A stretch of DNA of 63,032 nt from positions 1-63,032 of the forward strand of contig CAYRAV010000013.1 in the NCBI GenBank assembly GCA_964422365.1. The letters run 5' to 3'. Position 1 is the stretch's first letter. The number at the start of each line of letters is the position of its first letter. A model generated the notes under the pieces. The model ran no database searches and was not told where the DNA came from. It saw only the letters and a list, made by a program, of their open reading frames with translations. The DNA is from an uncultured Lachnospiraceae bacterium. GTDB lineage: Bacteria > Bacillota > Clostridia > Lachnospirales > Lachnospiraceae. A program made the translations under genes and the position numbers. Below are positions 2,081 to 52,407 of the stretch, piece by piece.

Positions 2081-2130
2081 TAACAGTTCAGCCGTGCAGA
2101 AACAATTGTATCCTATGCACATGGGATGTA
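2081..2130 (+). repeat. Motif-B repeat copy 1 (TAACAGTTCAGCCGTGCAGAAACAATTGT...ATGCACATGGGATG)
   Basis: Roughly 80% identical to 10183-10240 and, as reverse complement, to 45927-45985 and 52376-52407. Confidence 0.7.
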
Positions 2131-2182
2131 GGACGGATTTTGCAGACATTCAAAATAAAAAAGAATGTGGAGATAACAGACA

Positions 2183-2557
2183 ATGGCAGAATCATTATTT
2201 GAAGAACTGGGTGGCAGATATGAAAGGCAGGGTGATTACATAATTCCATGCTTAACTGTACCCACCGAAGAAGAAAAGACGATAGGAATATGGGGGCAGC
2301 GGCACTTGGATTATCTAAAGCAATGTTGTAAAGTTACATACACCAATTTTCTCACAAGCGGCGGGCTCAATGCCTATCTTGCCGACGTTGATAAACAAGC
2401 ACAGGAACGCTTTGAAAGGCTTATAGAGGGCATGAAACAGGTACAAGGCGTAAACGAACAGCTAAAGGCAGAAAATGCCTTAGAATGGACAGGACGGATC
2501 AATAACATAAGGGCTTGTGCTAGGGAGATTGTGGGGAGAGAAATTATTTTTGCCTAG
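2183..2557 (+). CDS. tnpV: TnpV-like protein (Tn4451-family small accessory protein); no cognate recombinase present
   Basis: 124 aa. Motifs LFEELGG-YERQGDY-IPCLT-EEE-IG-WGQRHL-YLK...NFLTSG-LN-YLADVD-QAQERF recall transposon TnpV proteins. Recognised from memory, not searched. Confidence 0.6.
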   Translation: MAESLFEELGGRYERQGDYIIPCLTVPTEEEKTIGIWGQRHLDYLKQCCKVTYTNFLTSGGLNAYLADVDKQAQERFERLIEGMKQVQGVNEQLKAENALEWTGRINNIRACAREIVGREIIFA

Positions 2558-2659
2558 TGGAAATAGTAGGGTGAAATGCTCTGTTATTTTCTCTCGAAAA
2601 CTTGTTGACACGGAAATAAGAATATGATAAACTTGTTTCCGAGGAAAAGAGGTGAAAGG

Positions 2660-3127
2660 ATGGATAACAACATATTAAAACTCTTTGCAGAGTATTTAGA
2701 AAAGCAGGATATGCTCTCAAAATTGACAGAACATGAAAAGCTGCATAGTTATAGTTATTCAGAAATCCACACGATTGTTGCGATTGGTGATTTAGAATTA
2801 CCGAATGTTACTGCTATTGCTGAATATATGCATATGACTAAAGGGGCAATCAGCAAAATTGTCAAAAGACTACAAGCGGCAAAGTTGGTTGAAACTTATC
2901 AAGTAGGTGAAAACAAACAAAAGGTGTTTTATGAATTAAATGCAGCAGGAAAATTCCTGTATAATGAACATGAAAAACGACACAGCCTTTGGATACAGCG
3001 TGACCGAGTATTTCTTGAAAAGTATACATCGGAGCAAATCGAATTTCTTGAAAATTTCATGACAGATTTTAATGGTTATTTAGAAGAGAAGATTATTGAA
3101 TTAGGAGGAAAAAATAATGATGATTGA
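2660..3127 (+). CDS. MarR family transcriptional regulator
   Basis: Winged-HTH pattern (TAIAEYMHMTKGAISKIVKRLQAAKLVE). Start moved to the ATG at 2660, which follows GAGGTGAAAGG. Confidence 0.75.
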   Translation: MDNNILKLFAEYLEKQDMLSKLTEHEKLHSYSYSEIHTIVAIGDLELPNVTAIAEYMHMTKGAISKIVKRLQAAKLVETYQVGENKQKVFYELNAAGKFLYNEHEKRHSLWIQRDRVFLEKYTSEQIEFLENFMTDFNGYLEEKIIELGGKNNDD

Positions 3128-3683
3128 CCTTACACTGAAAATTACGCCTAAGATGGTAGTAGATGCCCAAGGAAATGAAAAGAAAGCATTAGTTGGGCAT
3201 TTAGGTACACACTTTGATGTTATGGATAGGGAGTTCCCTCTTAGCTACATTCGCCGTAATGCTGTTGTATTTGATGTAAGTTCTGTTAAAGATAGGGATA
3301 TTGATGTTAACGATATAGATTTTACTATGATAGATAAAGGAATGTTTGTAGGTTTTTATACAGGTTTTATTGAGTTTTGTGCCTATGGTTCAAAAATGTA
3401 TTTTTCAGAACATCCGCAGCTTTCGCATGAATTGATAGACTTTCTTGTGCAAAAAGAAGTATCAATTATTGGAGTGGATTTTGCAGGAGTAAGGCGTGGC
3501 AAAGAGCATACTATTACAGACCAAAAGTGTGTAGAAAAGGGCGTATTCGTTGTTGAAAATTTATGCAATTTAGAACGAGTGGTAGGAGAAAAAAATTTAG
3601 TCATTAATACGTTTCCTATGAATTATGCGGAAATAACGGGTTTGCCTTGCAGGGTGGTTGCAGAAACAAAAAGTGATTTATAG
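3117..3683 (+). CDS. Cyclase family protein (kynurenine formamidase-like fold)
   Basis: HxGTHxD motif (GHLGTHFDVMD), typical of the cyclase family. Start overlaps the marR stop. Confidence 0.7.
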   Translation: MMIDLTLKITPKMVVDAQGNEKKALVGHLGTHFDVMDREFPLSYIRRNAVVFDVSSVKDRDIDVNDIDFTMIDKGMFVGFYTGFIEFCAYGSKMYFSEHPQLSHELIDFLVQKEVSIIGVDFAGVRRGKEHTITDQKCVEKGVFVVENLCNLERVVGEKNLVINTFPMNYAEITGLPCRVVAETKSDL

Positions 3684-3822
3684 ATGGTTGCAGCATTATA
3701 GAAAATAAGTATTAAAAACTTAAAACTAACAGGAATTAGAAGAACAAATTGAACATTTTTTTAGCCGATAGCGTTTTTGGTGATACTATCGGTTAAAGAA
3801 TTAGTGGATTGTCAACACTTTT

Positions 3823-4655
3823 TTAGACAATTTTTTTAAGGTTATTTTCCCGAAATTGTACTGGTGTTTGATAATTCAACGAAGAATGAATACGATGATG
3901 ATTATACCAGTTTACATAATCCCATAGCTTTAATTTCAATTCTTCCAAGGTATGAAATCTCTCATTCCATATAAATTCCGTCTTTATTATTTTGAATGTG
4001 GCCTCTGCTGCAGCATTATCATACGGACACCCTTTGCGGCTCAGTAAACGTTCCATATCAAATGCCTCCAGCAATTCATCTATTGTCTGATTTTTGAATT
4101 CATTTCCACGGTCCGTATGAAAAATATGGATATCTGATAACTTCCCTTTTATACTCATAAATGCCTGTTTTACAAGTCCTGCCGTTTTATGTTCCCCTGC
4201 ACTGTAGCCTATAATCTCTCTGTTAAAAAGGTCAACAGGTACACATATGTAATTCCATTGTTTCCCAACTCTTACATATGTCAGAACACTTACCACTACA
4301 TTACGATAAGATTGTTCGTTAAACTGGCGGTTAGAACATTTTCCGCCTTAGATTCATTGCATCGGTCTTTCTGTGGTTTAAATTGTGCAGTTGTGTAATT
4401 CGATACCAGTCCCTCCTGTTTCATAATTCGTCCAATTCTACGTCTGGACACCTGTTTTCCTTTCTTTTGCAACTCTTTTTTTATTTTGCGTGTACCGTAA
4501 TTGTTGCGGCTCGCTTTGAAGATGCCTGTGATATCAGATACCAAAGAGGATTCATCAGGTTTCTTTTTGGCTTCATAATAATAAGTGCTTCTGTTTACCT
4601 GCAGGACGCGGCACATTGCTGATACAGAGTATTTGTGGGCATTTGCCTTAATCAC
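3823..4655 (-). pseudogene. IS3-family transposase OrfB (integrase core) split by an internal frameshift near 4296-4330
   Basis: Two consecutive minus-strand ORFs (4296..4655 and 3823..4296) together encode an rve/DDE integrase (HTDRGNEF...YDNAAAE). The break lies inside orfB, not at the programmed orfA/orfB frameshift site. Confidence 0.6.
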
Positions 4656-4657
4656 AT

Positions 4658-4954
4658 TTACTTTCGTCCTAAGATCAGCGCCGCTTGTTTTAAAATGTCA
4701 TTTTCCATTTTGAGCTGCTGATTTTCTCTGCGAAGTTTTATGAGTTCTTCCTGTTCAGGAGTCCGGTTGTCTTTTTCATGAAAAGAACCGGAATTTGCCG
4801 CCTGCTTCACCCATTTATCAAAGACGGATGTGGAAATATCATATTCCCTGCAAATATCGCACCTGCGTTTACCAGAATGATATAAATCTACCAGTTGTTT
4901 TTTGAATTCATCTGTATATTTACGAGGTTTTCTTCTTTGTTTTTGTTCGGTCAT
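4658..4954 (-). CDS. IS3-family transposase OrfA (HTH)
   Basis: 98 aa with a leucine-zipper/HTH region typical of IS3 OrfA (KRRKPRKYTDEFKKQLVDLYHSG). Confidence 0.8.
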   Translation of the reverse strand: MTEQKQRRKPRKYTDEFKKQLVDLYHSGKRRCDICREYDISTSVFDKWVKQAANSGSFHEKDNRTPEQEELIKLRRENQQLKMENDILKQAALILGRK

Positions 4955-5357
4955 ATTTTGTTGCTCCTTTACTTACTTATTTATTTTATAATATATGACC
5001 TTAAAAAATCCGTCCAGTTTATTGTAACCTATCCAAAGGGCATAGGATACAATTGTTTCTATAAGCCGGATGTCCGATATCTTCTAATATAGTCCCATCA
5101 AATAGAAAGGAAAGTATTTTCACTTTGCCCAAGGCATACCAGACAGGTTTAATGCCAGCGGGAATCATCACTTCATGATTATCTAATTATCATTTACAGA
5201 TTGTAATATTCTGTCTAATTATGCAGCAAAATGCAAATCAAAATATAAAAAATCCATCCAAAAAGTGACAAAATAATCGCAAACGATTCAGTATAATATT
5301 AGCAGTTCAGATATAGAAGCTGAGAGTGAAGGAAAAAGGAAAGGCCGGGGGTGAAAG

Positions 5358-6296
5358 TTGCATGTAACTTTATATTTGGATACTTTTTTTGCCATTAATT
5401 TTTTTATGAACATATTAGTACTATTTGCACTGAAAAAAATTTTAAAGCTTTATACAGGATTGTTCAGGATCATGATAGGAAGTATGATAGGAACTATCAT
5501 AATGATAGCCGTTTTTTTTAATACAATGTTTTTGGAATGGCAAAAAGCGGTGGTGTATTATGTATTGCTTTCCATTGTTATGGTAAGGATAGCTTTTGGA
5601 AAAGCAAGTATTCAGGTAATAATAGCAAGGGTATGCTGTATGTATGCTTTAACCTTTGGTGTAGGGGGTTTGGGAAACTTCATCTGCTGCCAGATGTTAC
5701 AAAAAGGAAGAAGAAATTCTTATTTAGGGACAAATCCATTGAAAAGCTCTACAAGCAGGGAAATATGTGACAGTAACAGTAGTATAGGAATAGAAGAAAT
5801 ACTTATATTGGCAGGTGTTATTTTAATACTATTGCCAATAATTTTAAAAGTATCAGAGTACATAAAGCAGGAGTATCTCACAAAATGTAGAGTATCATTA
5901 TATTATGGAGAAAAAAGTATAACAGGGATGGCATTAATTGATACAGGAAATCAATTAAAAGATTGGCTCACCAGTCACCCGGTTACAATCGTGCAAGGAG
6001 ATTTTATTAATAAACTGTTAGAGGAGAATATAAAAAAACAGATAGAGGAATATCAGATAGCAGAATGGGGAAAGAATAAAGAGTTTTTCCACACAAAAGA
6101 GCGGTTAAAGTACATTCCATATCATTCACTTGGAAATGAAAATGGAATGTTGGTTGGAATGTATTTAGACAAAATGACATTATATATAAAAGGTAGAAAA
6201 AAGGAGATTAAGCATCCGTTAATTGGAATTTACGCAGGAAAATTATCAGAAAATCAGGAATATCAGATTATATTGCATCGGGAATTCATAGAATAA
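5358..6296 (+). CDS. spoIIGA: Sporulation sigma-E processing peptidase SpoIIGA
   Basis: Multi-pass membrane N-terminus. Aspartic-protease DTGN motif (ALIDTGNQL). Sits immediately upstream of sigE. Confidence 0.8.
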
Positions 6297-6310
6297 AGAG
6301 GAGGAAAAGC

Positions 6311-7051
6311 ATGTTGTTAAAAGTATCCATACCAAATAAATTTCAATTTAGAATGATACCAGATTTTAGAAGTATGTTCTCTGGTGGAAAAGGGAATATG
6401 CATTATATCGGAGGAGCAGATGTGCTGCCTGCACCATTAGAGGCGGATATTGAAAGTGAATTGATTGAACAGATCGGAACAGAACAGGAACAGGAAGCAA
6501 AGAGCCTGCTGGTAGAACACAATTTAAGATTAGTAGTGTACATAGCAAAGAAATTTGATAATACAGGAGTAGGGGTAGAAGATTTGATTTCAATTGGAAC
6601 TATAGGGCTAATCAAGGCAATTAACACATTTAATCCATGTAAAAATATCAAACTGGCAACCTACGCTTCTAGATGTATCGAAAATGAAATTTTAATGTAT
6701 CTTAGAAGGAATAATAAGACCAAAATGGAAGTATCTATTGATGAACCGTTAAATGTGGATTGGGATGGAAATGAATTATTATTATCGGATATTTTAGGCA
6801 CAGAAGAAGATGTGATTTATAAAAATATTGAAACAGAAGTAAATCGGAAAATGTTAAACAAAGCATTAGAGAAATTGTCAGAAAGAGAACGGATTATTGT
6901 ACAACTGCGTTTTGGATTAAATACAAAGGACGGAAATGAAAGGACACAGAAAGAAGTTGCGGACTTATTAGGCATTTCCCAGTCATATATTTCCAGATTA
7001 GAGAAAAAGATTATCGGACGTTTAAAAAAGGAAATGTTACGTTTAGAATAG
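6311..7051 (+). CDS. sigE: Pro-sigma-E (sporulation sigma factor E)
   Basis: Pro-sequence then YIGG-LP-PL. Sigma-70 regions 2 and 4. RBS AGAGGAGG. Conserved spoIIGA-sigE-sigG order. Confidence 0.9.
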
Positions 7052-7159
7052 AAAAAATAGTTATAATAATCTTTAGTAAGAAAAGTAAAGAGGAGAGTAT
7101 AATTAACAAGAAAAGCGTGAATCCTATTTATAAAGAACAGATAAGATGGAGGTCGAAGG

Positions 7160-7939
7160 ATGGCTCTTTATAAAGTAGAGATTTGTGGAGTGAATACAGC
7201 GAAATTACCATTATTGAAAAATGCGGAAAAAGAACTATTATTCGGTAAAATACTAAAAGGAGACAAAGAAGCAAGGGAAACTTATATTAAGGGAAATTTA
7301 AGACTTGTATTAAGTATTGTTCAGCGTTTTTCAAGCAGTAATGAAAATGTAGATGATTTGTTTCAGATTGGTTGTATAGGATTGATAAAAGCAATAGATA
7401 ATTTTGATGTTACACAAGGAGTAAAATTTTCTACCTATGCAGTACCGATGATTATAGGGGAAATCAGAAGATATTTAAGGGATAATTCAAGTATAAGGGT
7501 AAGCCGGTCTTTGCGGGATATTGCATATAAAGCCATTTATGCCAAAGAGAATTTGATGAAAAAAAACGATAGAGAACCTACTATAGAAGAAATTTCGAAA
7601 GAAGTTGATATTCCAAGTGAAGACATTATATTTGCATTAGATGCTATTCAAAGTCCTGTATCTTTGTATGAACCTGTATATGCAGAAGGAGGAGATACAC
7701 TGTATATTATGGATCAGATCAGTGATAAGAAGAATAAAGAGGAAAAATGGGTGGAAGATATTTCTATTCAGGAGGCATTAAAAAGACTGCCTGAAAGGGA
7801 ACACAATATTATTGAGCTTCGTTTTTTTGAAGGAAAGACACAAATGGAAGTGGCAGAAGAAATACACATTTCTCAGGCACAGGTTTCCAGATTAGAAAAA
7901 AATGCATTAAAGACAATGAAAAATTATTTGTCACAATAA
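7160..7939 (+). CDS. sigG: Sporulation sigma factor G
   Basis: Sigma-70 family regions 2-4. Sits directly after sigE, as in the Bacillus and Clostridium spoIIG-sigG locus. Confidence 0.85.
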   Translation: MALYKVEICGVNTAKLPLLKNAEKELLFGKILKGDKEARETYIKGNLRLVLSIVQRFSSSNENVDDLFQIGCIGLIKAIDNFDVTQGVKFSTYAVPMIIGEIRRYLRDNSSIRVSRSLRDIAYKAIYAKENLMKKNDREPTIEEISKEVDIPSEDIIFALDAIQSPVSLYEPVYAEGGDTLYIMDQISDKKNKEEKWVEDISIQEALKRLPEREHNIIELRFFEGKTQMEVAEEIHISQAQVSRLEKNALKTMKNYLSQ

Positions 7940-8020
7940 ATATAATAGCTGCTGCAGGAAATGGCAGCTGCAATATAGCCCAAACTGTCAGAACGAAAGG
8001 GAAAAGAGAAAACTGAAAAG

Positions 8021-8072
8021 AGGTTGTCAATCTAAAGTGACATAGTGTCATTTTTCGTTGACAACCTTTTTT
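8021..8072 (+). terminator. Rho-independent terminator of sigG
   Basis: 10-bp stem aggttgtcaa/ttgacaacct followed by TTTTTT. Confidence 0.6.
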
Positions 8073-8114
8073 CTGTTTGCTATAATACAAAATATAAAAA
8101 ATGACACTATGTCA
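8038..8114 (+). promoter_or_regulatory. Pair of TGACA-N3-TGTCA palindromes (putative TetR operators) bracketing the promoter
   Basis: tgacatagtgtca at 8038-8050 and tgacactatgtca at 8102-8114. Confidence 0.45.
8058..8086 (+). promoter_or_regulatory. Consensus sigma-A-type promoter (TTGACA-17-TATAAT) for the TetR operon
   Basis: TTGACA at 8058-8063, a 17-nt spacer, then TATAAT at 8081-8086. The -35 hexamer is the 3' arm of the sigG terminator stem. Confidence 0.55.
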
Positions 8115-8136
8115 TTATTTTATTAAGGAGGATAAG

Positions 8137-8766
8137 ATGCCAAAAGTAAATTCAGAGTATTATGAAGAACGTAAAAAATATATTATAGATTGTACCATGA
8201 AAGTTTTATCAAAGAAAACATTAGAACAGGTTAATATGCGGGATATCATAAGAGAGACAGGATTTAGTCAGGGAACAGTATATAATTATTATAAAAATGT
8301 AGATGAAATTATTTCCACTATAATCTGCCAGTATATGAGAGAGATGAAAGCTGCATTGCAAATATGTATAGAGCAGTCAGAAAATTTTCATGATTGTTAT
8401 CATAAGATATGTGATGGCATGATTGCTTTACATCAGCAGAATCCTCAGCTTTTCGAAGCAATGTTGGGAAAAATTTTATATCATGATACAGAGCAGGACA
8501 AGCAGGATATTTTATTTGAAATCTATCAGATAGGAGAAGAATTGAATAGTGCTGTCATTGGATTATTAAAGAACGGGATAAATGATGGTTTCGTCAGAGC
8601 GGATTTGAATCTTTATGTTGTAATCTTTCATCTGTGGTCAGGGATTGCACAGACAATTTTGTTTTCTTATCATAAGCAAAAGTATATTGAGAGTCAGTTT
8701 CATATGACTCGGTATGAATATATGGAACAGGCATTTCATCTTATTATTTGTTCCATTTTGAAATAG
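8137..8766 (+). CDS. TetR/AcrR family transcriptional regulator
   Basis: N-terminal TetR HTH (LEQVNMRDIIRETGFSQGTVYNYYKN). Start moved to the ATG at 8137, which follows AAGGAGG. Confidence 0.85.
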   Translation: MPKVNSEYYEERKKYIIDCTMKVLSKKTLEQVNMRDIIRETGFSQGTVYNYYKNVDEIISTIICQYMREMKAALQICIEQSENFHDCYHKICDGMIALHQQNPQLFEAMLGKILYHDTEQDKQDILFEIYQIGEELNSAVIGLLKNGINDGFVRADLNLYVVIFHLWSGIAQTILFSYHKQKYIESQFHMTRYEYMEQAFHLIICSILK

Positions 8767-8775
8767 GAGGAGAAT

Positions 8776-9528
8776 ATGTTATTTTTATATTTTAGCGGCA
8801 CAGGAAATACACAATTCTGTATGGAATATTTGGCAAAAAAAATGGACGCATCTGCTGCAGTTTATTCTATTGAGGAAGCAAAAGTTTTAGAAGCAATTAA
8901 AATGAATAATGAGATTGTGTTGGGATATCCAATTTATTATAGCAATTTACCTAAGATTTTAAGAGATTTTGTTGTTGAACATGCAGATTTGTGGGAGGGG
9001 AAGGATATTTTTCTTATTGCCACAATGGGGCTTTTTAGTGGAGATGGTGCTGGGGTTATGGCAAGGCTTATGAAGAAGTGTCATGCAAATGTGATTGGTG
9101 GACTGCATTTAAGAATGCCAGATTGTATTTTAGATGTAAAAGTATTAAAGAATACAGACCATCAAAAGCTGGTACAAAGGGCAAAAGAAAAGTTAGATGT
9201 AACAGCTGTATCGTATCAAAAAGGCAGGCTGCCACAGGAAGGACTTAGAATATGGAATCATATTGCTGGCTTATTTGGGCAGCGTCTCTATTTTTATAAT
9301 AAAACAAAGAAGTATACAGACAAATTGAAAATTGATACTGAAAAGTGTATAGGTTGTGGAAAATGTGTTTCTCTTTGCCCAATGCAGAATATTATAGTGG
9401 AACATAAAAAGGCTTTTGCCCATAATAAGTGTACAATGTGTTATCGTTGTATTAATAATTGTCCAAAGCAGGCAATTACACTGATTGGAAAAAAGGTTGT
9501 AGCGGAACCATTTGAAGAGTATTATTAG
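8776..9528 (+). CDS. Flavodoxin-like domain fused to a 4Fe-4S dicluster ferredoxin domain
   Basis: N-terminal flavodoxin-like region (YFSGTGNT). C-terminal CIGCGKCVSLCP and CTMCYRCINNCP cluster motifs. Confidence 0.7.
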   Translation: MLFLYFSGTGNTQFCMEYLAKKMDASAAVYSIEEAKVLEAIKMNNEIVLGYPIYYSNLPKILRDFVVEHADLWEGKDIFLIATMGLFSGDGAGVMARLMKKCHANVIGGLHLRMPDCILDVKVLKNTDHQKLVQRAKEKLDVTAVSYQKGRLPQEGLRIWNHIAGLFGQRLYFYNKTKKYTDKLKIDTEKCIGCGKCVSLCPMQNIIVEHKKAFAHNKCTMCYRCINNCPKQAITLIGKKVVAEPFEEYY

Positions 9529-9530
9529 TA

Positions 9531-9550
9531 GATATTCAAACACGCTCCAG
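9531..9550 (+). repeat. Solo MITE terminal repeat (right-end type)
   Basis: attcaaacacgctcca matches the MITE terminal repeat. Confidence 0.4.
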
Positions 9551-9676
9551 GGTGTATCTGAAAATCAGGCAAACAGCATTTGAATGAGATATGCTGTTTG
9601 CAGTAATAGCTATTCAGACACACACTAAAAATAAGACTGTAAAATGCAAATGTGTTTTAACGGAAAAGAAAAATTC

Positions 9677-10117: not shown

Positions 10118-10182
10118 AATTATTCCTCCATTTATTTTCATTTACTATTATCAAGTTTGTCCAAATTTAAAAATAATATGAG

Positions 10183-10240
10183 TAACAGTTCAGCCCTGCA
10201 GAAACAATTGTGCAATATGCATGTGGGAGCATGCTCACTA
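10183..10240 (+). repeat. Motif-B repeat copy 2
   Basis: TAACAGTTCAGCCCTGCAGAAACAATTGTGCAATATGCATGTGGGAGCATGCTCAC. Contains an internal imperfect inverted repeat with ccattgtttct at 10251-10265. Confidence 0.7.
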
Positions 10241-10524
10241 AGGGAATATTGTACCATTGTTTCTATAGGATGGACACCTGACTAGAGTATTGACATGGTA
10301 TGAGTGCGTAGTAAAATATAGGAAATGAAAGAAGAATGGATTCGTTTGAAAAACTTTAAGATAAATGATATTATAAATGTAGCAGTGTAGAGATACCATT
10401 TATATATGAATAATTTGTTCAGCCAAATTATAGATTTTTAGTGATAATCATACAGCCAGTAAATGATACTATTTGGGCATACTCGGTTGGATTTGGATAT
10501 ACTGCAATTTATGTTTATTTGGAC

Positions 10525-11678: not shown

Positions 11679-11803
11679 AGAATGTTTTCTGTTTGTAAAT
11701 GTCTGGATTTTTTTGGAATATTAAAAGAAGCCGATATTATCCTTATGAATTTATAGCATTTATTAAATAAAGGGGAATCTAAAAACTGCATAGAAATAAG
11801 AAT

Positions 11804-11966
11804 GAGAGGTTTAAGAAAATTCATTGCCCCAATCTGCACGTCCACTTTGCGTGTATATTTGCCCCAAATTCATTCAATGTAGCCCGCTATACCTCATGAA
11901 TTTGGAACAAATCCCCCACAAATTGTGACATACATCTTGTAACAAGCAATTTTCAAACACACTTTG
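11804..11966 (+). mobile_element. MITE copy (degenerate left terminus)
   Basis: Interior cattgccccaatctgcacg...ccaaattcattcaatgtagcccgctatacctcatgaatttgg...gcaattttcaaacacac matches the family consensus. Confidence 0.7.
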
Positions 11967-12012
11967 GTGTACATGAAAAATTTAAAAATCGAATGAAATT
12001 GGAGGAACGAAA

Positions 12013-12603: not shown

Positions 12604-12638
12604 AGTTTAAACAATGGATGATGCAGAAGTGGAGATGA

Positions 12639-22983: not shown

Positions 22984-23129
22984 TTTTGTCAAAAATTACA
23001 CTATTTTATAGCCAAAGTAATAAATATATATTATTAAGGGGCAATTTCTTTTGTGGGGATTGCTTCTTACTATGTTTATTCCCACAGAGGATTGATTTAG
23101 AGAAAAACTGTAATGATTTTATGATGTAT

Positions 23130-23292
23130 TAGAGCGTGTTTGAAAATTTGCTGCCACAGTCTGCCAGTTTCATTTTGTGGTATATTAGCCTCCAATTTAA
23201 TCAATACAGTCCGCTGTACCTCATAAATTTGCGATAAATTCCTGCAAATTGTGACATATATCTTTCGGAAGGCAATTTTCAAACACACTCTG
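23130..23292 (+). mobile_element. MITE copy
   Basis: TAGAGCGTGTTTGAAAATT...GGCAATTTTCAAACACACTC. Confidence 0.8.
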
Positions 23293-23334
23293 GCAGGAAT
23301 AAAATTTACAAAGGCAGAAAAATTTAGAAGGGAG

Positions 23335-38316: not shown

Positions 38317-38555
38317 GTTCAGGATAGTTACAATTTTACGATAAAAACTCATAAATGGGAAGTATAAAATGACAAATTGTATAATTACACTTGTGTGCAG
38401 GCTGTGTTTTGTGGTATAATTGGTAATAGAAATATATCATTTCTTACCAGATACAGTTCCTAGTATAACGTTTTTGAAATAGTTGGACTGTATAGATACT
38501 GTATTTTCAAGCGTTTTCCGCAAAATAGAGTCCAGTTAATTAGTGAACGTTGTAC

Positions 38556-38906
38556 TAAAGCATGTTTGAAAATTAAAAATTGTACAAAAAATACCAAAAA
38601 TGTCTGTGATAATAGAGTGAGAATCATAGGAAATTCCCCATTATTGTATGAATGTAGGTTTGATTTTCACATAATTTATGCAATTTTTTGGCATATTGAT
38701 TGTTACAAGATGTATGTCACAATTTGTGGGGGATTTGTTCCAAATTCATGAGGTGTAGCAGGCTGCATTGAAGCAATTTGGAGCAAATATTCATCTTTAT
38801 CGGACGAAGTCCAGAGCATCCTGAATGGGCATGAATTGTGATATGCCTGGATAGGTACGCAAAGTGAGATATGCAGATTGGGCAATGAATGATCAAACAT
38901 GCTATT
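38556..38906 (-). mobile_element. MITE copy in reverse orientation carrying a roughly 120-bp internal insertion
   Basis: Reverse-complement consensus (ttgttacaagatgtatgtcacaatttgtggggga...ccaaattcatgagg...gcaatgaatgatcaaacatgc). Confidence 0.65.
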
Positions 38907-43920: not shown

Positions 43921-43989
43921 CAAATAAAAGTCAGGTTACTTAGAGTTTCGCAATTGTCTAAGTATAAGAATAAGAAGGAGGTATATCAA

Positions 43990-45696
43990 ATGAAAATGAA
44001 AGGGAAGATTGTATTAAGTATTGTGCTGCCGATTTTAATTTTGAGTATCATATTAAGTTCTTTATCCTATTATGAAATGTATAAAATTGCATTAGATGAG
44101 GTAAAAGCTTCATTGAAGACATCTGCACTTATGATAAAAGAAGCATATGAACTTAAAATTGAAGGTCCATATCATCAAAAAGAGGATGGTACTTATTGGA
44201 AAGGTGATACATTAAATATTTCTGAGAGTGCAAGTATTGTAGATAATATTGAACAGGATGGAGAGATGGCAGCATCGTTCATTTTTGGAAAAGTTCGTGT
44301 TATGACTAGTATTAAGGATGAGAAGGGAAACAGAATTGTAGGGACAGAGATAGATGAAAGTATTTATGAAAAACTGCAAAATGGTGAAAATGTTTTTGTA
44401 GAAAACTTAAAGATACAAGAGAATGTTTATGAGGCTTTTTATATGCCGGTTTATCAGGAAAATTCAGATACAGAGATTATTGGTTCTATATTTGTGGCAA
44501 AAAATTCAAAAAATCTGACTGCTGGTGTCAATAGGGCAATACTGATGCTGATAGCTGTTATTATATTGATAGTGTTAATAAGCATTTTTGTTGGCTGGGT
44601 TTTGGTTATGAAGATTATTAATGTATTACATAAAGGAATGGATATGGTTGAAAATGTATCTACAGGGAATCTAGTAACACAATTAGAAAATAAATATCTA
44701 GTGAGAAAAGATGAGGCAGGACAGATTTCTAGAGCAATTAACCGATTGAGAGAGAAACTTCAAAAAATTTTTGCTTCTATTTTTGAGAATGGCAATCAGT
44801 TATTAGAGAATTCTAGTGCTGTAAGTGAAGTAGCGAAACATACTTCAATAACAGTAGAACAAGTAGAAAAGGCGGTTCAAGAGATTGCAAAGAGTGCTGT
44901 TTCACAGGCAGAGAAAACACAAAAAGCATCAGAGCAGATAGCAATTATGGGTGAAAAGATTACAGAAACTGCACATGAGGTAGAGAGATTAAATAAAAAT
45001 GCAAAAGAGATGAAACATGCCAGTGATGAAGCGATGCAGACTATGGAAGATTTAAGTGATATTAATGAAAAGGCAAAAGAGGCAATTCATATTATCTATA
45101 ATCAAACCAATACAACAAATGATTCGGCAGTGAAGATTAAGGAAGCTACCAATCTGATTACATCAATTGCAGAGGAAACAAATCTGTTATCTCTAAATGC
45201 AAGCATTGAAGCAGCAAGGGCAGGAGAGCAAGGAAAAGGTTTTTCAGTGGTAGCAGCACAGATTCAAAATTTGGCAGAGCAGTCTAATGAATCAGCACAA
45301 AGAATTGAAAAAATCATTCTATCATTGTTAGAAGATTCCGGAAATGCGGTAAAAACAATGGATGAAGTAAAAATGATTATGGATAGTCAAAGTGCAAAAT
45401 TAACAAAAACTTCGGAAACTTTTGCCCAGGTAAAACAGGGAATTGACCATTCTATAAATGGAATTGCAAATATATCAGAACAAGCAGAAAGTTTAGAGCA
45501 GGTAACAGAAAGTGTAGTAGATATTGCTGAGAGTTTATCAGATATTGCACAGCGTAATGCATCAAATGCTGAGGAAACTTCTGCGGCAACAGCTGAAGTT
45601 TCAACAACAGTGGAAACATTGTCTGATACAGCAAAACAATTGAAGGAAATTGCACAACAATTAGAACAAAGCATTAGCATATTTGAAATTAGTTAG
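43990..45696 (+). CDS. Methyl-accepting chemotaxis protein
   Basis: TM, Cache-like ectodomain, HAMP domain and the conserved MCP signalling domain ([24 protein letters not shown]). Confidence 0.85.
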
Positions 45697-45926
45697 AAGC
45701 TGTAGAAAAATAATTGATGCAAATTGTGCAGCATATTTCTTTGAGGGGTAGGTCAAAAAACATAGGCGCAGCGGGTTGGGGTGAGGCTTTTTGAATTGTG
45801 CAATCAGAGAAATAGACAAGCCAAGATGTGTCAGTTATTTTCCTGCAGATTCTTAGAGTATATAACAGCATAAAAAATGGTATAGGCAGTAAAGATGCTT
45901 ATGTCATTTTTTTGATTCAGGTATGT

Positions 45927-45985
45927 GAGCAAGCTCCTATGTGCATATTGCATAATTGTTTCCATATGTCTGAACTGTTACTGAC
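45927..45985 (-). repeat. Motif-B repeat copy 3 (reverse orientation)
   Basis: gtgagcaagctcctatgtgcatattgcataattgtttccatatgtctgaactgtta is the reverse complement of the copy-2 consensus. Confidence 0.7.
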
Positions 45986-46066
45986 AGAATGGAAAATATT
46001 TCTACATATCTTGACGTATTATATATTATCCATTACAATAAAAAGAATAGAAAGGGGGGAAAATTT

Positions 46067-46651
46067 ATGAATAAAGGAAGAATGAAAATATCATTCAACT
46101 CACCTGTTATTTTGGGCTTTTCTGGAATATGTCTAGTGGCATTAGTCTTAAATTTTCTGACAAGGGGATTTGCCAATAACTTATTATTTAGTGTCTATCG
46201 TTCTTCGCTTTTAAGTCCATTTACTTATTTTAGATTGATAGGACATATTTTTGGACATGCTAGCTGGTCGCATTTTATCGGAAATATGACATTGATTTTA
46301 GTATTAGGACCATTATTAGAAGAAAAATATGGCTCAGCTAATACTGCCTGTGTGATTTTCTTTACAGGGCTTATTACAGGGTTTGTACATTTTATGTTTT
46401 TTCCACATATACAACTGCTAGGTGCCAGTGGCGTGGTATTTGCATTTATTCTGCTATCTTCCTTTACAAGTATGAAGGAGGGAGAGATACCATTAACTTT
46501 GATTCTTGTAACACTGATTTATATTGGTGGCGAAGTTTATGATGGAATTTTTGTCAGAGATAATATATCAAATTTGACTCATATTTTAGGAGGTGGAGTA
46601 GGTGCAGGATTTGGATATATGATGAATGTATATCAGAGAAAGGAAATTTAG
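46067..46651 (+). CDS. Rhomboid family intramembrane serine protease
   Basis: GASGVVFAF (GxSG) and a conserved His in the last TM helix. Confidence 0.8.
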   Translation: MNKGRMKISFNSPVILGFSGICLVALVLNFLTRGFANNLLFSVYRSSLLSPFTYFRLIGHIFGHASWSHFIGNMTLILVLGPLLEEKYGSANTACVIFFTGLITGFVHFMFFPHIQLLGASGVVFAFILLSSFTSMKEGEIPLTLILVTLIYIGGEVYDGIFVRDNISNLTHILGGGVGAGFGYMMNVYQRKEI

Positions 46652-46709
46652 AAAACAAGTTTTAATACAATTTTCATTTGTTTTAGAGTTGTTTTTGTTT
46701 TATAAGAAG

Positions 46710-47639
46710 TTATTTTAACAGATTCAGAAAATTTTGATTTCCAATCACACGAATCATAGGTCCAAAGGATAGTATCTCAATCAGTAATTCTGTTTCTGCA
46801 CCTTTATTATAATAGATGAAACATTCATAAGTGTTTTCATCTATTTTTTTTGTATTTTTTTCATAGTTGGAAAACTGCAGCATAGTACGCTCCAGGGCAT
46901 TTCGTTCGTTTTTGATAATAAGGTGTACTGGTTCTTTGTAGTAGGAATGTTTGATTAATCGGTTAATATTAGGACGCTTTTTCTCGTATTTATCCAGTAG
47001 AGTAACAGTTTCAATCCGGTCTAGATTAACAGTTTCGATTCTGGGTGACTTATTATGCCGGTTTTCTAAGGAGAGCAGGCGGAATTTATTATTTTTCATG
47101 GAATATTCTAATCTGCATGGAATATACCAGTGACGGATTCTGTTTCCCGCTCTGGAATGATATAAAATATCTACATGTTGTTTATTTTTAATTGCAGTAA
47201 CAAGTGTGCGGAAATTATGTATGTATGCAGGGTTAGAAAAATCATCTTTATCTGAAAAACGGTCATAGTAGTAAAAATTTTCTGGTGTCCATAGTGGTAT
47301 CACATCCACAAATAGTTCCATAAGAAACTGAACTTGCTCTTTATCAAGAAACAATTGTATTTTCTCATCGAAAAGAATTGATTTTAAAAAAGAAGTCTGC
47401 AAAGAAGTCAGTGGTACGTAAAAATCACTATTGATTTTAGAAAGAAAAACAGTATCTTCTTTCTTTAATAGATTCCATTCTCCGCTTATTAATTTTGGAA
47501 CAATAAACAATGCACTTTCTTCATACCCTAAGTTTTGCATATAGGTATATAAATCTTTTTGTGTGGCATATTTTCGTGTATCAAGTATAGATTTTAATAC
47601 TTGATAGTAGCAGTTGTATAGTTCTGAAAATAATTTCAT
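46710..47639 (-). CDS. WYL-domain transcriptional regulator (second gene of a tandem pair)
   Basis: WYL-type motif RIRHWYIPCRLEY...FRLLSLE...VNLDRIETV. Start set at the ATG after GGAGG. Confidence 0.55.
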   Translation of the reverse strand: MKLFSELYNCYYQVLKSILDTRKYATQKDLYTYMQNLGYEESALFIVPKLISGEWNLLKKEDTVFLSKINSDFYVPLTSLQTSFLKSILFDEKIQLFLDKEQVQFLMELFVDVIPLWTPENFYYYDRFSDKDDFSNPAYIHNFRTLVTAIKNKQHVDILYHSRAGNRIRHWYIPCRLEYSMKNNKFRLLSLENRHNKSPRIETVNLDRIETVTLLDKYEKKRPNINRLIKHSYYKEPVHLIIKNERNALERTMLQFSNYEKNTKKIDENTYECFIYYNKGAETELLIEILSFGPMIRVIGNQNFLNLLK

Positions 47640-47683
47640 ATGATTACCTCCTAGAATATGCATTTTTTGATAAAATGGAGTTG

Positions 47684-48916
47684 TTAAACATGATACATCT
47701 GATACATTGTTTCTAAATCATGTTCAATACGTGCTTTCAAATTAGAATGTTCTGTTTCAATATCAATGATTCGTCCAATAAAAGAACGAATCCACGGTGC
47801 CATTTCGATTGCATCGAATACATCTTTTTCATAGATAAACACATTTTCTGCAATTTTTGTAATTGTACCATTTTTTCCTTCCCGTTGTAAACGGTTCAAG
47901 ATGTATTGTTCTGATTCTTCGTTAATGGATAGGGTTAATTTCACATGTTGTATGTAACTGCGATTATCGCTTTGAAAAGAAACACCCCATGCCTTGTTGC
48001 GGTTACGGTTTAGTTTTTCTAAAATTGTATCAAAATCAGTACAGTGTTCTAGTAAATTTACTTCCTTAATATAATCTAACCGAATGCAGAAGAAACGTTT
48101 AGGCTGCTCATAATACAGACAAAGGAAACGGCGTCCGGTTTTTGTACTAATGAAAATTTGAAGAGGAATACAGCAAGTGACTTGTTTTCTGCTGTTTTTG
48201 CTGCTTTTGATTGTTATTTCAATCCGTTGCTTTTTTCGCAGGGCCGTTAAAATGGAGAGTAATATTTCGTCTTCTAATGTATGTACAAAAAAGCTGTGTT
48301 TCACACGAAAAAGTCTGTTTTCTTCTGATATGGTATCTAAAATAGTGTTTCCTAAAAAGCCTACTGGTGCAGATAACTGATAAAATTTTAGGGCATCTGC
48401 CAGGGCAGGGCATTTTGAAAGTGTTTCTTTAAAAGAAGAATTCTTATAATAAATGATTTTGTGTCCTTGTTTTTCCTTATGAAGTAATCCTTCGTTTTCA
48501 TATTCATTACATTTTCGCCTTACCATTTGTGTCTCAAAAAGAACACCATATTCATTTAAAATGCTGTCTGTAAGTTCTTCCACTGTTTTTCCTTCCGTTG
48601 TGTTTAGATAATCCAAAAGAAAAAAGTGGAGCATAATATCATTGTCTGTAAAACTTTTGGTTTTCCATACATTATAAAGCGGATTGGTATCTAAAAGGTT
48701 ACTGTCAATGGCAAGAGAAATATTTTTTCCATTACTTGTGTAATCTTTTTTAATAAATTTTGAAAGCCAGCTTTCAATCCGCCTCCGTTCATTATCATAA
48801 GTACGAGGACTTTTTTCTTTAAATTCGCCTCTGGTTTTAAAGCCATATACGAAAAAGTCACGAACATATTCGCGGCTTTTAGAGAAAGATTTGATCAGTT
48901 CTTTAAATTCAGACAT
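47684..48916 (-). CDS. WYL-domain transcriptional regulator (first gene of a tandem pair)
   Basis: WYL-type motif RRFLCLYYEQPKRFFCIRLDYIKEV. RBS AAGGAGG. Confidence 0.55.
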   Translation of the reverse strand: MSEFKELIKSFSKSREYVRDFFVYGFKTRGEFKEKSPRTYDNERRRIESWLSKFIKKDYTSNGKNISLAIDSNLLDTNPLYNVWKTKSFTDNDIMLHFFLLDYLNTTEGKTVEELTDSILNEYGVLFETQMVRRKCNEYENEGLLHKEKQGHKIIYYKNSSFKETLSKCPALADALKFYQLSAPVGFLGNTILDTISEENRLFRVKHSFFVHTLEDEILLSILTALRKKQRIEITIKSSKNSRKQVTCCIPLQIFISTKTGRRFLCLYYEQPKRFFCIRLDYIKEVNLLEHCTDFDTILEKLNRNRNKAWGVSFQSDNRSYIQHVKLTLSINEESEQYILNRLQREGKNGTITKIAENVFIYEKDVFDAIEMAPWIRSFIGRIIDIETEHSNLKARIEHDLETMYQMYHV

Positions 48917-49025
48917 GTGGATAAAAACCTCCTTTCAGGTGCAGAAATGGTTTGAAACTATATCTATCATAGCACATTTTAGAATTTTATAAAAGTATTG
49001 TAATTTTTTCATATTGTAACCAGAT

Positions 49026-49188
49026 TGGAGTGTGTTTGGAAATTCACTGCCATAATCTGCACCCTCTGCTTTGTGTGTATATTTGCCCAAATTCATTCAA
49101 TCCAGCCTGCTGCACATCATGAATCTAGAGTGAATCCCCACAAATTGTGACACACATTTTGTAACAAGCAATTTTTCAACACGCTTTA
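49026..49188 (+). mobile_element. MITE copy
   Basis: TGGAGTGTGTTTGGAAATTC...GCAATTTTTCAACACGCTTTA. Confidence 0.75.
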
Positions 49189-49296
49189 GAATTTATAGTT
49201 CGCAACTTTTTTGAAATGATAAATTTTCCATTTCAAGGTATGATAACAACATCACAGATCAACAGTTTCAGACATGAAAAATGTGTTATAGAAAGG

Positions 49297-50538
49297 ATGA
49301 GGGAGATGTTTGTAGTAGCAAATGAAAATACAAAGGTTCCAATGAAAATATGGCTAAGCGGGGCAGACAAAATAGAAGAAAGCTGTTTGGAACAGGCATA
49401 TCATTTAGCAAATCTTCCATTTGTACATAAGTGGGTGTGTTTAATGCCTGATACCCATACAGGAAAAGGAATGCCTATTGGAGGTGTTATTGCAGCAAAA
49501 GATGTGATTATTCCAAATGCAGTGGGTTCTGATATTGGATGCGGCATGGTATTTGCAGCAACTAACATAAAAGCAGCAGATATCAAAGAAATTCAGACAG
49601 GCAATGGAACCATGATACAATCAATGGTTGGCAATATCATGCGTTCTGTGCCAATTGGAGTAAATAAATTTAAAACGAAGCAGGAATCAGCAGTTTTAGC
49701 CAAAGCAGCAGAGGAGATGGAGAAATACAACGAAAATAAAGAGCTGATTCATTTAATAGAAGAAGCATATTATCAGGTAGGAACACTTGGAGGCGGAAAT
49801 CATTTTATTGAATTGCAGGAAGATGAGGAAGGATATTTGTGTGTTATGATTCATTCGGGAAGCCGTCACCTTGGAAAGGAAATCTGTGATTATTTTCACG
49901 ATAAGGCAAGAGCATTAAATATACAATGGCACAGCAGTGTGCTGGAAGAATACAGGCTTGCGTTTTTACCTGTAAACACAAAAGAAGGAAAGGAATATAT
50001 TAACTGGATGAATCTGGCACTTGATTACGCAGAAGAAAATAGAGCACATATGTTAGAAAGTGTTTGCAGGATTGTAAAGGAGCAGATTGAGAAACAGATA
50101 GATGTTACAGTAGAATTTACAGATCACATCAACTGTCATCACAATTATGCGGCATTAGAAAATCATTATGGAGAGAATGTATGGGTGCACCGAAAAGGGG
50201 CGACCAGAGCAAGGGAAGGGGAAAGAGCAGTTATTCCTGGTGCAATGGGTTCCTATAGTTATGTAGTGGAAGGCAAAGGTAATCCAATGACTTTTTGTTC
50301 CTCTTCTCATGGAGCAGGAAGAAATTATTCCAGAAGCGGGGCGAAGGCAAATTTTTCTGTAGAAAAAGTCATGGTAGATTTGAAAGAACAAGGTGTTGTT
50401 CTTGGAAAAAGAAATAAAAATGATGTAGCAGAAGAATGTAGATTTGCCTACAAAGATATTGATGAAGTAATGGAACAGCAAAAAGATCTGGTTACACCAA
50501 TCAGAAAATTAAAAACAGTTGGTGTGGTAAAAGGATAA
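49297..50538 (+). CDS. rtcB: RNA 3'-phosphate/2',3'-cyclic phosphate ligase RtcB
   Basis: RtcB signatures: DTHTGKGMPIGG, GSDIGCGM, GGGNHFIE, HSGSRHLG, NCHHNYA, HRKGAT, SSSHGAGR. Confidence 0.9.
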   Translation: MREMFVVANENTKVPMKIWLSGADKIEESCLEQAYHLANLPFVHKWVCLMPDTHTGKGMPIGGVIAAKDVIIPNAVGSDIGCGMVFAATNIKAADIKEIQTGNGTMIQSMVGNIMRSVPIGVNKFKTKQESAVLAKAAEEMEKYNENKELIHLIEEAYYQVGTLGGGNHFIELQEDEEGYLCVMIHSGSRHLGKEICDYFHDKARALNIQWHSSVLEEYRLAFLPVNTKEGKEYINWMNLALDYAEENRAHMLESVCRIVKEQIEKQIDVTVEFTDHINCHHNYAALENHYGENVWVHRKGATRAREGERAVIPGAMGSYSYVVEGKGNPMTFCSSSHGAGRNYSRSGAKANFSVEKVMVDLKEQGVVLGKRNKNDVAEECRFAYKDIDEVMEQQKDLVTPIRKLKTVGVVKG

Positions 50539-50702
50539 TGCTGGTAACCTGCAAAAGGCAGGATTATCATAGATGAAAGGTTATACTATACATGAGTATG
50601 ACAGAAAATCTGTTGCTCTGTGGTGCCGGCATAATTATGCATGGTATACCGTATAACGTTTCTTTGCACTATTTTGGATATAGCTGCAAAATATAACGTG
50701 GT

Positions 50703-50812
50703 GTCAGTGGTTCAAATCCACTACGGAATTTTCCGTTAGCTCAGCTGGGTAGAGCACCACTGGTAGCCGGAATACGGCAGATGGTTCGAATCCATCAATC
50801 AAAGTACCTGCC
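50703..50812 (+). ncRNA. tRNA-like element with tRNA modules in permuted order (not a canonical tRNA)
   Basis: A T-arm-like hairpin agtggttcaaatccact plus acggaa, then ttccgt plus D-arm gctcagctgggtagagc, a short hairpin gccggaatacggc and a second T-arm gatggttcgaatccatc. No foldable anticodon arm and no CCA. Confidence 0.3.
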
Positions 50813-51141
50813 ACGTACTTTAATCTCATAAATGTAGAATTATCTTTTTGTAGGTGCATGCAGCTGTCTTGCAGTTACATTGCAATTTATAATATTGCTT
50901 GTAAAAATGGGGATACCGTATTCAACTTATTGTATGACATAAAAGAAATCACAGGATTCTGTAAGAGTTTTATTGTTACAGAATCAAGTTGCCGCCAATG
51001 CAGATTTTATTTGTATAAGGCAGCAGGTTTCGGACGCCTTGTACATTAAGCAATCCTTAACCAATTTTCCGCAATATGATAAAAACAAAAGGATAATTCT
51101 ATATGAAACACAGAGCATATGAAAAATATGGGGGAATTTTA

Positions 51142-52251
51142 ATGAAAATGATAGTAATAAAAGAAAAACAGGCAGGATATGTAATAAAAAATGGCATATT
51201 TGTGAAAATGATTACAGCAGGAAAATATTTCTATCCAAAGGCACTAGGATATGAAGTTATAATAGAAGAAATGCTAGGAGAAACAGAGGGCATAGAGCTG
51301 CCATATGAAGTGCTGATAAAAGACAAAAAATATAAAGAATCTGTTATTCGTTTTCAAATACCAGATGGTTCGATTGGATTAATTTATGTAAATGGGATAT
51401 TGAGAACATTTGCAACAAGAAAAGAATACATATTTTGGAATGTATATGAAACTTATGACATAAAACTTATTTCTATGGAAGAAACAGAAATAAACAAGAC
51501 AATAACAAAACAGATGCTTTCTGTTATTCCAAGAACGTATTATACTCAAATATGTGTGGAAGAAGGGGAAACAGGATTATTGTATTACAACAATATTCTA
51601 CAGCGACAGTTAGAACCTGGTATTTATTACTTTTGGAATTACAAAGTAGCTGTTACTTATAGAATTGTAAGCCTTAAGTTGAATGAACTTAATATAATTG
51701 GACAGGAAATTTTAACAAAAGATAAGATAGGAATTAGAATGAATGTAGTATGCTCCTATAAAATCACAGATGCAGTGGGAGTGGCATGCCAGATTACAGA
51801 TCTGGCAAAACAATTGTATTCCTATATCCAGTTAGTAATCAGGGAGTTAGTTGGAAATTATAAATTAGATGAAATATTAGAGCAGAAAAGTAAAATTTCG
51901 GAAGAAATATATGAGAAGCTGAAGAAAAGAGAAACAGAACTTTATGTAGAATTTCTTTCATCAGGAATAAAGGACATTATCTTACCGGGAGAAATAAGAG
52001 ATATTATGAATACTGTACTAGTTGCAGAAAAAACTGCTCAGGCAAATGTTATTACAAGAAGAGAAGAGGTTGCATCTACCCGGTCTTTACTTAATACTGC
52101 AAAATTGATGGAGGAAAATAAAACATTATATAAATTAAAAGAATTAGAATATCTCGAAAAAATCTGCACGAAGGTAGGAGAAATATCTGTGAATGGAAAT
52201 GCAGGACTAATTGAACAATTAAGTATGTTAATAGGAGACAGACAACCATAA
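51142..52251 (+). CDS. SPFH/band-7 (slipin/flotillin-like) domain protein
   Basis: SPFH core followed by a coiled-coil (ILPGEIRDIMNTVLVAEKTAQANVITRREE). Confidence 0.7.
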   Translation: MKMIVIKEKQAGYVIKNGIFVKMITAGKYFYPKALGYEVIIEEMLGETEGIELPYEVLIKDKKYKESVIRFQIPDGSIGLIYVNGILRTFATRKEYIFWNVYETYDIKLISMEETEINKTITKQMLSVIPRTYYTQICVEEGETGLLYYNNILQRQLEPGIYYFWNYKVAVTYRIVSLKLNELNIIGQEILTKDKIGIRMNVVCSYKITDAVGVACQITDLAKQLYSYIQLVIRELVGNYKLDEILEQKSKISEEIYEKLKKRETELYVEFLSSGIKDIILPGEIRDIMNTVLVAEKTAQANVITRREEVASTRSLLNTAKLMEENKTLYKLKELEYLEKICTKVGEISVNGNAGLIEQLSMLIGDRQP

Positions 52252-52370
52252 AATGCTTGTTACAAGATGTGCATCACAATTTGTGGGGGGATTTGGTCCA
52301 AATTCATGAGGCATAACAGGTTATATTGAATGAATTTGAATCAAATATCTGCACAAAGTGGGGCATACAT
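52251..52370 (-). mobile_element. Truncated MITE copy in reverse orientation
   Basis: gcttgttacaagatgtgcatcacaatttgtgggggg...ccaaattcatgagg. Begins at the last base of the SPFH stop codon. Confidence 0.55.
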
Positions 52371-52375
52371 CTTGT

Positions 52376-52407
52376 ACAATTGTTTCTGCATGGCTGAATT
52401 GTTACAT
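52376..52407 (-). repeat. Motif-B repeat copy 4 (short, reverse orientation), fused to the truncated MITE
   Basis: acaattgtttctgcatggctgaattgttacat is the reverse complement of TGTAACAGTTCAGCCGTGCAGAAACAATTGT. Confidence 0.55.

Follow-up and report, generated by a model that had tools for sequence, protein, structure and literature searches.

The stretch of DNA analyzed here, referred to below as the window, comprises 63,032 nt (positions 1-63,032 of contig CAYRAV010000013.1, assembly GCA_964422365.1) from an uncultured Lachnospiraceae bacterium and contains four copies of a short intergenic repeat, motif B. We conclude that these copies are very probably the broken left ends of a miniature inverted-repeat transposable element (MITE). 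Most likely they represent debris of this transposon rather than an RNA gene or a regulatory signal. Among the options raised for motif B in an earlier reading of the window (the original prediction), that of remnant ends of another mobile element was therefore the one that held, because the same sequence forms the left terminus of a multicopy 187-nt element found elsewhere, which is bounded by terminal inverted repeats (TIRs) and flanked by target-site duplications (TSDs).

Direct reading of the sites confirmed all four copies at the predicted positions and strands, with copies 1 and 2 on the plus strand, copies 3 and 4 on the minus strand, and all four in intergenic DNA; the neighboring genes, encoding FtsZ, TnpV, OGG, MCP, rhomboid, and SPFH proteins, had also been named correctly. 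With up to 3 mismatches permitted, the 29-nt core TAACAGTTCAGCCSTGCAGAAACAATTGT matched at 2081, 10183, and 52376(-), each time with no more than 2 mismatches, while 100 shuffles gave 0 matches; a looser pattern also picked up the fourth site at 45954-45977(-). The repeat search returned pairwise identities of 83% over 54 nt for copies 1 and 2, 83% over 58 nt for copies 2 and 3, 88% over 42 nt for copies 2 and 4, 77% over 47 nt for copies 1 and 3, and 88% over 41 nt for copies 1 and 4. The measured range of 77 to 88%, together with 0/100 shuffles, agrees with the predicted 75 to 95% identity above background. The same search detected inverted partners of the inner part of the motif at 5036-5070 and 10240-10274. 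The limits of the repeat unit had to be adjusted: the sites stood, but the true start lies one base earlier, at the G of GTAACAG.

The complete element was found in another genome. A pattern scan of one genome per bacterial species with the query TAACARTTCAGNNNTNNNGAAACAATT yielded 24 loci, 22 of which belong to a single metagenome-assembled genome (MAG; CAZDPE01, an uncultured gut Lachnospiraceae), and the copy number in this MAG is accordingly given as at least 22. In 13 of these 22 copies, the motif faces outwards and the contig stops about 26 nt away, a pattern that is the signature of a multicopy repeat that breaks short-read assembly. The MAG copies have unrelated left flanks and become near-identical from (G)TAACAG onwards; all four window copies have the tip GTAACAG, as do 18 of the 22 in the MAG. 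The complete unit is 187 nt long and has perfect 16-nt TIRs, beginning with GTAACAGTTCAGCCAT and ending with its reverse complement, ATGGCTGAACTGTTAC. Perfect 8-bp TSDs flank five of the seven complete MAG copies (L011, L015, L017, L020, and L026), and L027 has a 6/8 match. Inside the 187-nt unit, a long hairpin with the loop GAGCTTGC adjoins the left end; the interior further contains a short GC-rich stem and another hairpin, with ACATGA ... GAATG as its frame. One of the duplication-flanked copies, L020 (2143-2243), is a 101-nt near-perfect palindrome with two left-type ends and the perfect duplication AATTTTGT, indicating that the first module alone can be inserted. Open reading frames (ORFs) over the L017 copy (4310-4582, minus strand; 4345-4539, plus strand) extend into the flanks and show no sign of being genes. 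The MAG copies are 80 to 97% identical to the window motif, and the window and MAG loci otherwise share essentially no DNA, as would be expected for mobile DNA.

When viral contigs were scanned with the end sequences of 16 and 14 nt, further small elements came to light; these are 80 to 260 nt long, have the same ends and different interiors, and carry no gene. Perfect 8-bp TSDs were present in L046/L056, L051, and L113, and 7/8 matches in L042/L044 and L048. The complete relatives thus combine the hallmarks of MITEs, namely, TIRs, TSDs, small noncoding size, and many dispersed copies with unrelated flanks. The scan of one genome per species gave no match from a genome resembling the window, though all four window copies fit the pattern, and the species of the window seems to be absent from that set; proteins identical to those of the window were found only in ENA/Logan metagenome assemblies (e.g., the SHAF22-1 samples). 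A blastn search of the 187-nt element against plasmids returned no match, and a literature search for the TIR string returned nothing relevant. A separate locus, L024 (CAVJLN010000046.1, labeled Bacteroidaceae), holds a genuine copy of the element, the right end of which is truncated; its contig also carries a ribosomal protein L10 leader (RF00557, 69 bits), a kind known from Firmicutes, and may be mis-binned.

A profile built with nhmmer from six of the 187-nt MAG copies matched the window at the four sites and at 5034-5080 only, and every left-part match begins at model position 1. This profile found no right half or right end of the element in the window, and a mismatch-tolerant search of the window for the terminal repeat detected the four left ends and nothing else. 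Downstream of the copies, the sequences show no similarity to each other above that of shuffles. Since none of the window copies has a right end, we regard them as four left-end fragments that are no longer able to transpose.

The extent of the retained part differs between copies. Copy 2 (10182..10283, +; model 1-102, E 7.4e-24) keeps the left TIR and the whole first hairpin (stem ~10188-10275), while the right half and right TIR are missing. Its presence had been predicted correctly, but its length is about 102 nt and not 58 nt, as the inverted arm at 10240-10274 closes the long hairpin. Folded as RNA, copy 2 reaches -36.3 kcal/mol, with a z score of -3.3 on the plus strand versus -1.07 on the minus strand. 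Copy 3 (45925..45981, -; model 1-57, nhmmer E 4e-7) consists of the left TIR and the 5' arm and loop of the hairpin, and its outer tip lies 30 nt from the promoter-like TTGACG-17-TACAAT of the rhomboid gene (46011-46039), outside the element. Copy 4 (52365..52405, -; model 1-41, nhmmer E 1.7e-8) has the left TIR and the start of the hairpin arm, with an alignment that is solid up to about model position 34. Here too, a promoter-like sequence, the TTGACA-17-TAATAT of the GDSL-lipase gene at 52434-52462, is situated outside the copy, the outer tip of which lies 30 nt upstream. A spot upstream of the promoters of divergent genes is a usual place for such insertions. No promoter hexamers and no terminators were found inside the motif copies; the promoter-like sites lie just beyond the outer tips, in keeping with the earlier rejection of motif B as a simple promoter. 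Directly after the end of the copy 2 similarity, at 10290-10317, there is a near-consensus promoter-like TTGACA-16-TAAAAT (11/12), which is directed towards the other repeat family of the window (MITE A, below) and ogg.

Copy 1 proved to be split. Its left part (2080..2126, +; about model 1-47) contains the left TIR (GTAACAGTTCAGCC) and the 5' arm of the first hairpin; the nhmmer alignment itself spans 2080-2129(+), model 1-50 (E 3.9e-8). Its right part (5034..5080, +; model 57-103, nhmmer E 3.1e-5) comprises the 3' arm of the first hairpin and the GC-rich stretch, a matching arm 2.9 kb away that had been overlooked in the original prediction. Inserted in the hairpin loop between them is a foreign block of 2.9 kb (2127..5033) with tnpV, marR, a cyclase gene, and an IS3-type insertion sequence (IS), none of which belongs to the repeat family, and about 11 nt of the loop are absent at the junction. 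The inverted repeat 2098-2127 / 5031-5060 is 90% complementary, and when 2073-2126 is joined to 5034-5090, a perfect stem of 22 bp forms again (-37 kcal/mol). Because copy 1 continues at 5034-5080, the foreign DNA is confined to the tnpV-marR-cyclase-IS3 block nested within this copy; the proposed 8-kb segment running from tnpV to sigG with copies 1 and 2 as its brackets therefore had to be abandoned. The genes spoIIGA, sigE, and sigG follow the block in their native order, and the 2.9-kb tnpV-IS3 block is the only recently acquired DNA near ftsZ and spoIIGA. No uninterrupted copy 1 was found in metagenome contigs of the same species, and all of the contigs fetched carry the 2.9-kb block.

The Pfam domains of the block are TnpV, MarR, Cyclase, HTH_Tnp_1, HTH_21, and rve. 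In a megablast search against plasmids, the tnpV module (2124-2557) was 87% identical to TnpV modules on Enterococcus, Ligilactobacillus, Campylobacter, Salmonella, and Monoglobus plasmids. This similarity begins at 2124-2126, precisely where the MITE similarity ends, and stops at the end of tnpV, leaving marR and the cyclase gene outside the plasmid-shared module. The IS3-type element (~3805-5035) has imperfect 37-nt inverted repeats starting with TGGAT (23/37, by eye), and the triplets on either side of it (TAG and AAG) differ. Two separate ORFs, encoding HTH_21 (4296-4655) and rve (3823-4296), take the place of an intact orfB, and given this split, the element is probably defective. We also considered the 11-nt inverted repeat GGACGGATTTT (2131-2141 / 5005-5015) as a remnant of a second IS3 end and rejected it, as chance alone would be expected to produce about one match of this kind in 3 kb. 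Upstream of spoIIGA, at ~5266-5298, GTGACA and TATAAT, spotted by eye and separated by a 21-nt spacer, are intact downstream of the MITE remnant and the block; we take this arrangement to resemble the long-spacer, Spo0A-dependent spoIIG promoter of Bacillus.

The window also harbors a second, more abundant repeat family, MITE A, which is presumably the "MITE" of the original prediction. Its members are ~240 nt long and have a central palindrome and long inverted ends that contain TAGAGCGTGTTTGAAAATT. They occur at 11800-11975, 23111-23300, 38537-38800, 49015-49200, 52250-52358, 55085-55345, 56900-57060, 60529-60650, and 62304-62480, and in the copy at 55085-55345, the inverted repeat reaches outwards to AAAGAGCATGGTAT / ATACCATGCTCTTT. 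A local alignment to this copy (score 138) bore out the claim that copy 4 of motif B adjoins a fragment of the other repeat family: the sequence at 52250..52358(-) is an internal MITE A fragment without tips of its own, and it also appears in repeat-search families D1, D2, and D4.

The first hairpin of the element is conserved in its pairing. We aligned eight distinct hairpin sequences (copies 1 and 2 of the window, one copy from a viral contig, and five related variants), across which the 30-pair stem is 84% paired. Six stem pairs are changed on both sides, compared with 1.8 +/- 0.9 in shuffles (0/500 as high) and at most 3 in slid controls. Examples include CAA/TTG to TCC/GGA in copy 1 and CA/TG to TG/CA in L052. 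These data indicate that either selection or palindrome-templated repair preserves the pairing. Which strand the wobble and A-C positions favor varies between copies, and thus, constraint at the RNA level and constraint at the DNA level are not separated by this comparison. In L048, L045, and L049, which have the same ends and unalignable interiors, a long hairpin likewise follows directly after the left end.

The complete relatives also resemble a previously described RNA family. Clostridiales-1 RNA (Rfam RF01699) was reported as an orphan "sRNA" (small RNA) candidate that is common in human-gut Clostridia (Weinberg et al. 2010, PMC2864571). When the relatives were scanned permissively, they aligned end to end with the RF01699 model, with all scores below the gathering score of 48 bits: the 172-nt element L049 reached 38.3 bits (E 5e-5 in 41.6 kb; 2.6e-7 locally), L017 reached 22.2 bits (E 0.006), and L026 reached 16.8 bits (E 0.15). 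Because unrelated microRNA (miRNA) models also score ~20 to 26 bits on long hairpins, the L049 match alone is convincing on score. In the L049 alignment, the outer stem of the model is made by the terminal repeats (ACAGUUC/GAACUGU), and both the loop GUGCUUGCAC and the two boxes, AACAUGA and GAAUGUU, agree fully with the RF01699 consensus. Judged against the four-stem plan of the model, the complete relatives have the outer stem, the looped first hairpin, and the boxed stem, each lacking one hairpin, and the window copies keep at most the 5' strand of the outer stem and hairpin 1. No window copy matched RF01699 at the gathering score, and around copy 2 there was no match at E values up to 1. 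No Rfam family matched anywhere in the window at the gathering score, and the matches below threshold were hairpin noise against miRNA families. An nhmmer search with five canonical Clostridiales-1 sequences likewise gave no match to motif B elements. We therefore treat motif B as a fragment of a divergent Clostridiales-1 relative and do not file it as a member of the family.

The flanked alignment of PMC2864571 contains five near-identical canonical Clostridiales-1 copies from one genome, which are bounded by the inverted repeats GATGTCAGGGTCAAAAGG / CTTTTGACCCCAACATC. Three of them have perfect 7-bp flank repeats (AATTTAA, AATTAAA, and TTTATAA) and two have 5/7 matches, while other canonical members have flank repeats of 6/8 and 9/9. 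On the basis of about 10 sequences read by eye, the Clostridiales-1 orphan family on balance looks like a MITE family itself; no paper in the literature library searched describes the family as mobile. The inverted repeats of the canonical copies (PMC2864571 supplementary file 76, parts 8 and 16; NZ_ABOU02 contigs 31, 35, 46, 49, 53, and others) are imperfect, and some of these copies have an extra 3' hairpin, GTTGGGGGCTTTTGACCCCAAC, beyond the Rfam model, which is their true right end. The structured core, i.e., the GCUUGC-loop hairpin and the ACAUGA/GAAUGU stem, is common to mobile lineages that differ in their TIRs and duplication lengths (8 versus 7 bp) and is preserved by compensatory changes, and the framed stem could form tandem G-A pairs. 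By analogy with the bridge RNAs and omega RNAs of IS110 and IS605, the core might be a functional module, an RNA or single-stranded DNA fold that serves the mobilizing enzyme, although we consider this doubtful. If it were true, the left-end hairpins retained in the window could still be bound or transcribed.

The features of the ends suggest how the element moved. A DDE transposase supplied in trans would have bound both ends of the element, which would then have been inserted into AT-rich intergenic DNA via a staggered 8-bp cut. The window copies have kept only the left end (41 to ~103 nt) and for this reason are immobile now. Copy 1 was afterwards split by the 2.9-kb mobile block, and copy 4 is fused to the fragment of MITE A. 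We read the scattered positions and mixed orientations as a record of past insertions without a shared function, and any present effect, such as that of a stable hairpin formed by copy 2 within read-through transcripts, would be incidental.

Several observations weigh against this reading. In both copy 1 and copy 2, the similarity to the 187-nt model ends at position 102-103 and gives way to unrelated sequence, and coinciding endpoints are not expected from two independent random truncations. The breakpoint at model position 102-103 is the end of the first palindromic module, which is found alone as the 101-nt L020 copy, and copies 1 and 2 may be descendants of such a short form with a degenerate right end. 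We rejected the stronger version of this idea, in which they are complete 101- to 103-nt mini-elements with a degenerate right repeat, as the target duplications would match at only 3/8 and 2/8 positions. Retention of the left end in 4 of 4 copies is not significant (two-sided p ~0.125), and as the window holds neither a complete copy nor a right end, TIR pairing and TSDs cannot be checked in these four. Searches of the window, the fetched MAG loci, and the viral contigs revealed no transposase bearing these ends. The family was seen in few genomes, and a scan of JGI metagenomes gave 3 chance matches only. Finally, the compensatory changes in the hairpin point to a constraint beyond passive decay.

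The same compensatory changes speak for a rival reading, in which the copies are genes for, or parts of, a Clostridiales-1-type structured small RNA that acts in the host cell, as do the better fold of the plus strand of copy 2 (z -3.3 versus -1.07) and the end-to-end alignment of the complete relatives with RF01699, led by L049 at 38.3 bits with its shared loop and boxes. We nevertheless consider this improbable: every RF01699 score stays below 48, the window copies are truncated to the first stem at most and do not match RF01699, the motif has no promoter or terminator of its own, the wobble pairs favor different strands depending on the copy, and the family, as its TIRs and TSDs show, is propagated as DNA. 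A role as the operator or protein-binding site of a regulon comprising the spoIIGA, ogg, rhomboid, and lipase genes is less likely still. The intergenic location of all copies, the half-palindrome GAAACAATTGT within the motif, and the position of copies 3 and 4, which end 30 nt upstream of promoter-like sites of divergent genes, would fit such a role, but orientation and distance to the genes are inconsistent, the conserved stretch of 40 to 100 nt is far longer than an operator, and the other genome carries the same sequence, along with target duplications, at 22 loci unrelated to each other.

The left ends in the window face each other, with copies 1 and 2 on the plus strand and copies 3 and 4 on the minus strand, and inverted pairs (2 and 3, or 1 and 4) could in principle be the ends of a composite transposon or island, just as copies 1 and 2 might delimit a mobile 8 kb. 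The 8-bp flanks match for no pairing of the four copies, the enclosed DNA contains the core genes spoIIGA, sigE, sigG, and murJ, copy 1 resumes at 5034-5080 so that only 2127-5033 is foreign, and the layout is the same in metagenome contigs of the same species; we regard this arrangement as very improbable. One might also ascribe the copies to local duplication or to chance, with no wider family behind them, given that there are only four in 63 kb and that JGI metagenomes and plasmids gave no matches, but this view is refuted by the at least 22 copies of 80 to 97% identity in a genome that has no other DNA in common with the window, while 0/100 shuffles reach the observed matches, and we give it almost no credence. 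The interpretation of motif B as broken left ends of a MITE is thus the one we retain.

For the annotation of the window, this means that the four repeats are to be read as transposon debris; they neither mark a regulon or the limits of an island nor encode an RNA. The element is an ordinary decayed MITE, of a kind already known. The link between TIR-bounded, TSD-flanked elements and Clostridiales-1, which has been listed since 2010 as a structured RNA without an assigned function and is very common in the human gut, adds modest interest. If mobility holds for the whole Clostridiales-1 family, the orphan "sRNA" should be reannotated as a MITE superfamily, and its covariation would need an explanation in terms of transposition.

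With Clostridiales-1, motif B elements share an outer stem formed from both ends, a long first hairpin with the loop (U)GCUUGC(A), a stem framed by ACAUGA ... GAAUGU, and multicopy occurrence in gut Firmicutes. They differ in their termini (GTAACAGTTCAGCC versus GATGTC/TGATAC) and in the length of the duplication (8 bp versus 7 bp), and of the hairpins in the model, L049 lacks the last and the 187-nt type the middle one.

With regard to the mobilizing enzyme, IS66-family inverted repeats begin with GTAAGCG and are accompanied by 8-bp direct repeats (PMC11946415), and ISDge4 of Deinococcus geothermalis, from the single-ORF ISBst12 group, has the TIR GTAACTGCTCAGCA and an 8-bp direct repeat (PMC12898284). 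The ends of motif B elements likewise start with GTAA, GTAACAGTTCAGCC is identical to the ISDge4 repeat GTAACTGCTCAGCA at 11 of 14 positions, and both duplicate 8 bp of the target. Unlike these IS elements, motif B elements measure 80 to 260 nt and have no transposase gene; the link consists of end sequence and duplication length only. Judging from these end sequences, the chances that an IS66-family transposase of the ISBst12 group acts on them in trans are about even. No IS66 domain was detected in the window ORFs tested, and the ORFs beside the truncated MAG copies are ordinary genes, with no transposase adjoining any copy. Candidate pairs of TIRs spaced 2.2 to 3.0 kb apart in viral contigs were rejected as an autonomous partner, as they are crossed by ORFs, lack duplications, and represent chance matches.

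In general plan, motif B shares with classical bacterial MITEs a short, noncoding, multicopy intergenic unit with inverted-repeat ends. The Correia/NEMIS elements of Neisseria and the RUP elements of Streptococcus pneumoniae are short noncoding MITEs of this type, with inverted-repeat ends and a target duplication, that occur in many copies between genes; classical bacterial MITEs can fold into stable hairpins and are often decayed or nested, and Correia elements duplicate TA. Motif B is not known to have any sequence relationship to Correia/NEMIS or RUP elements, and its target duplication is 8 bp. In contrast to classical MITEs, moreover, its internal structure is kept by compensatory changes and is common to lineages with other termini.

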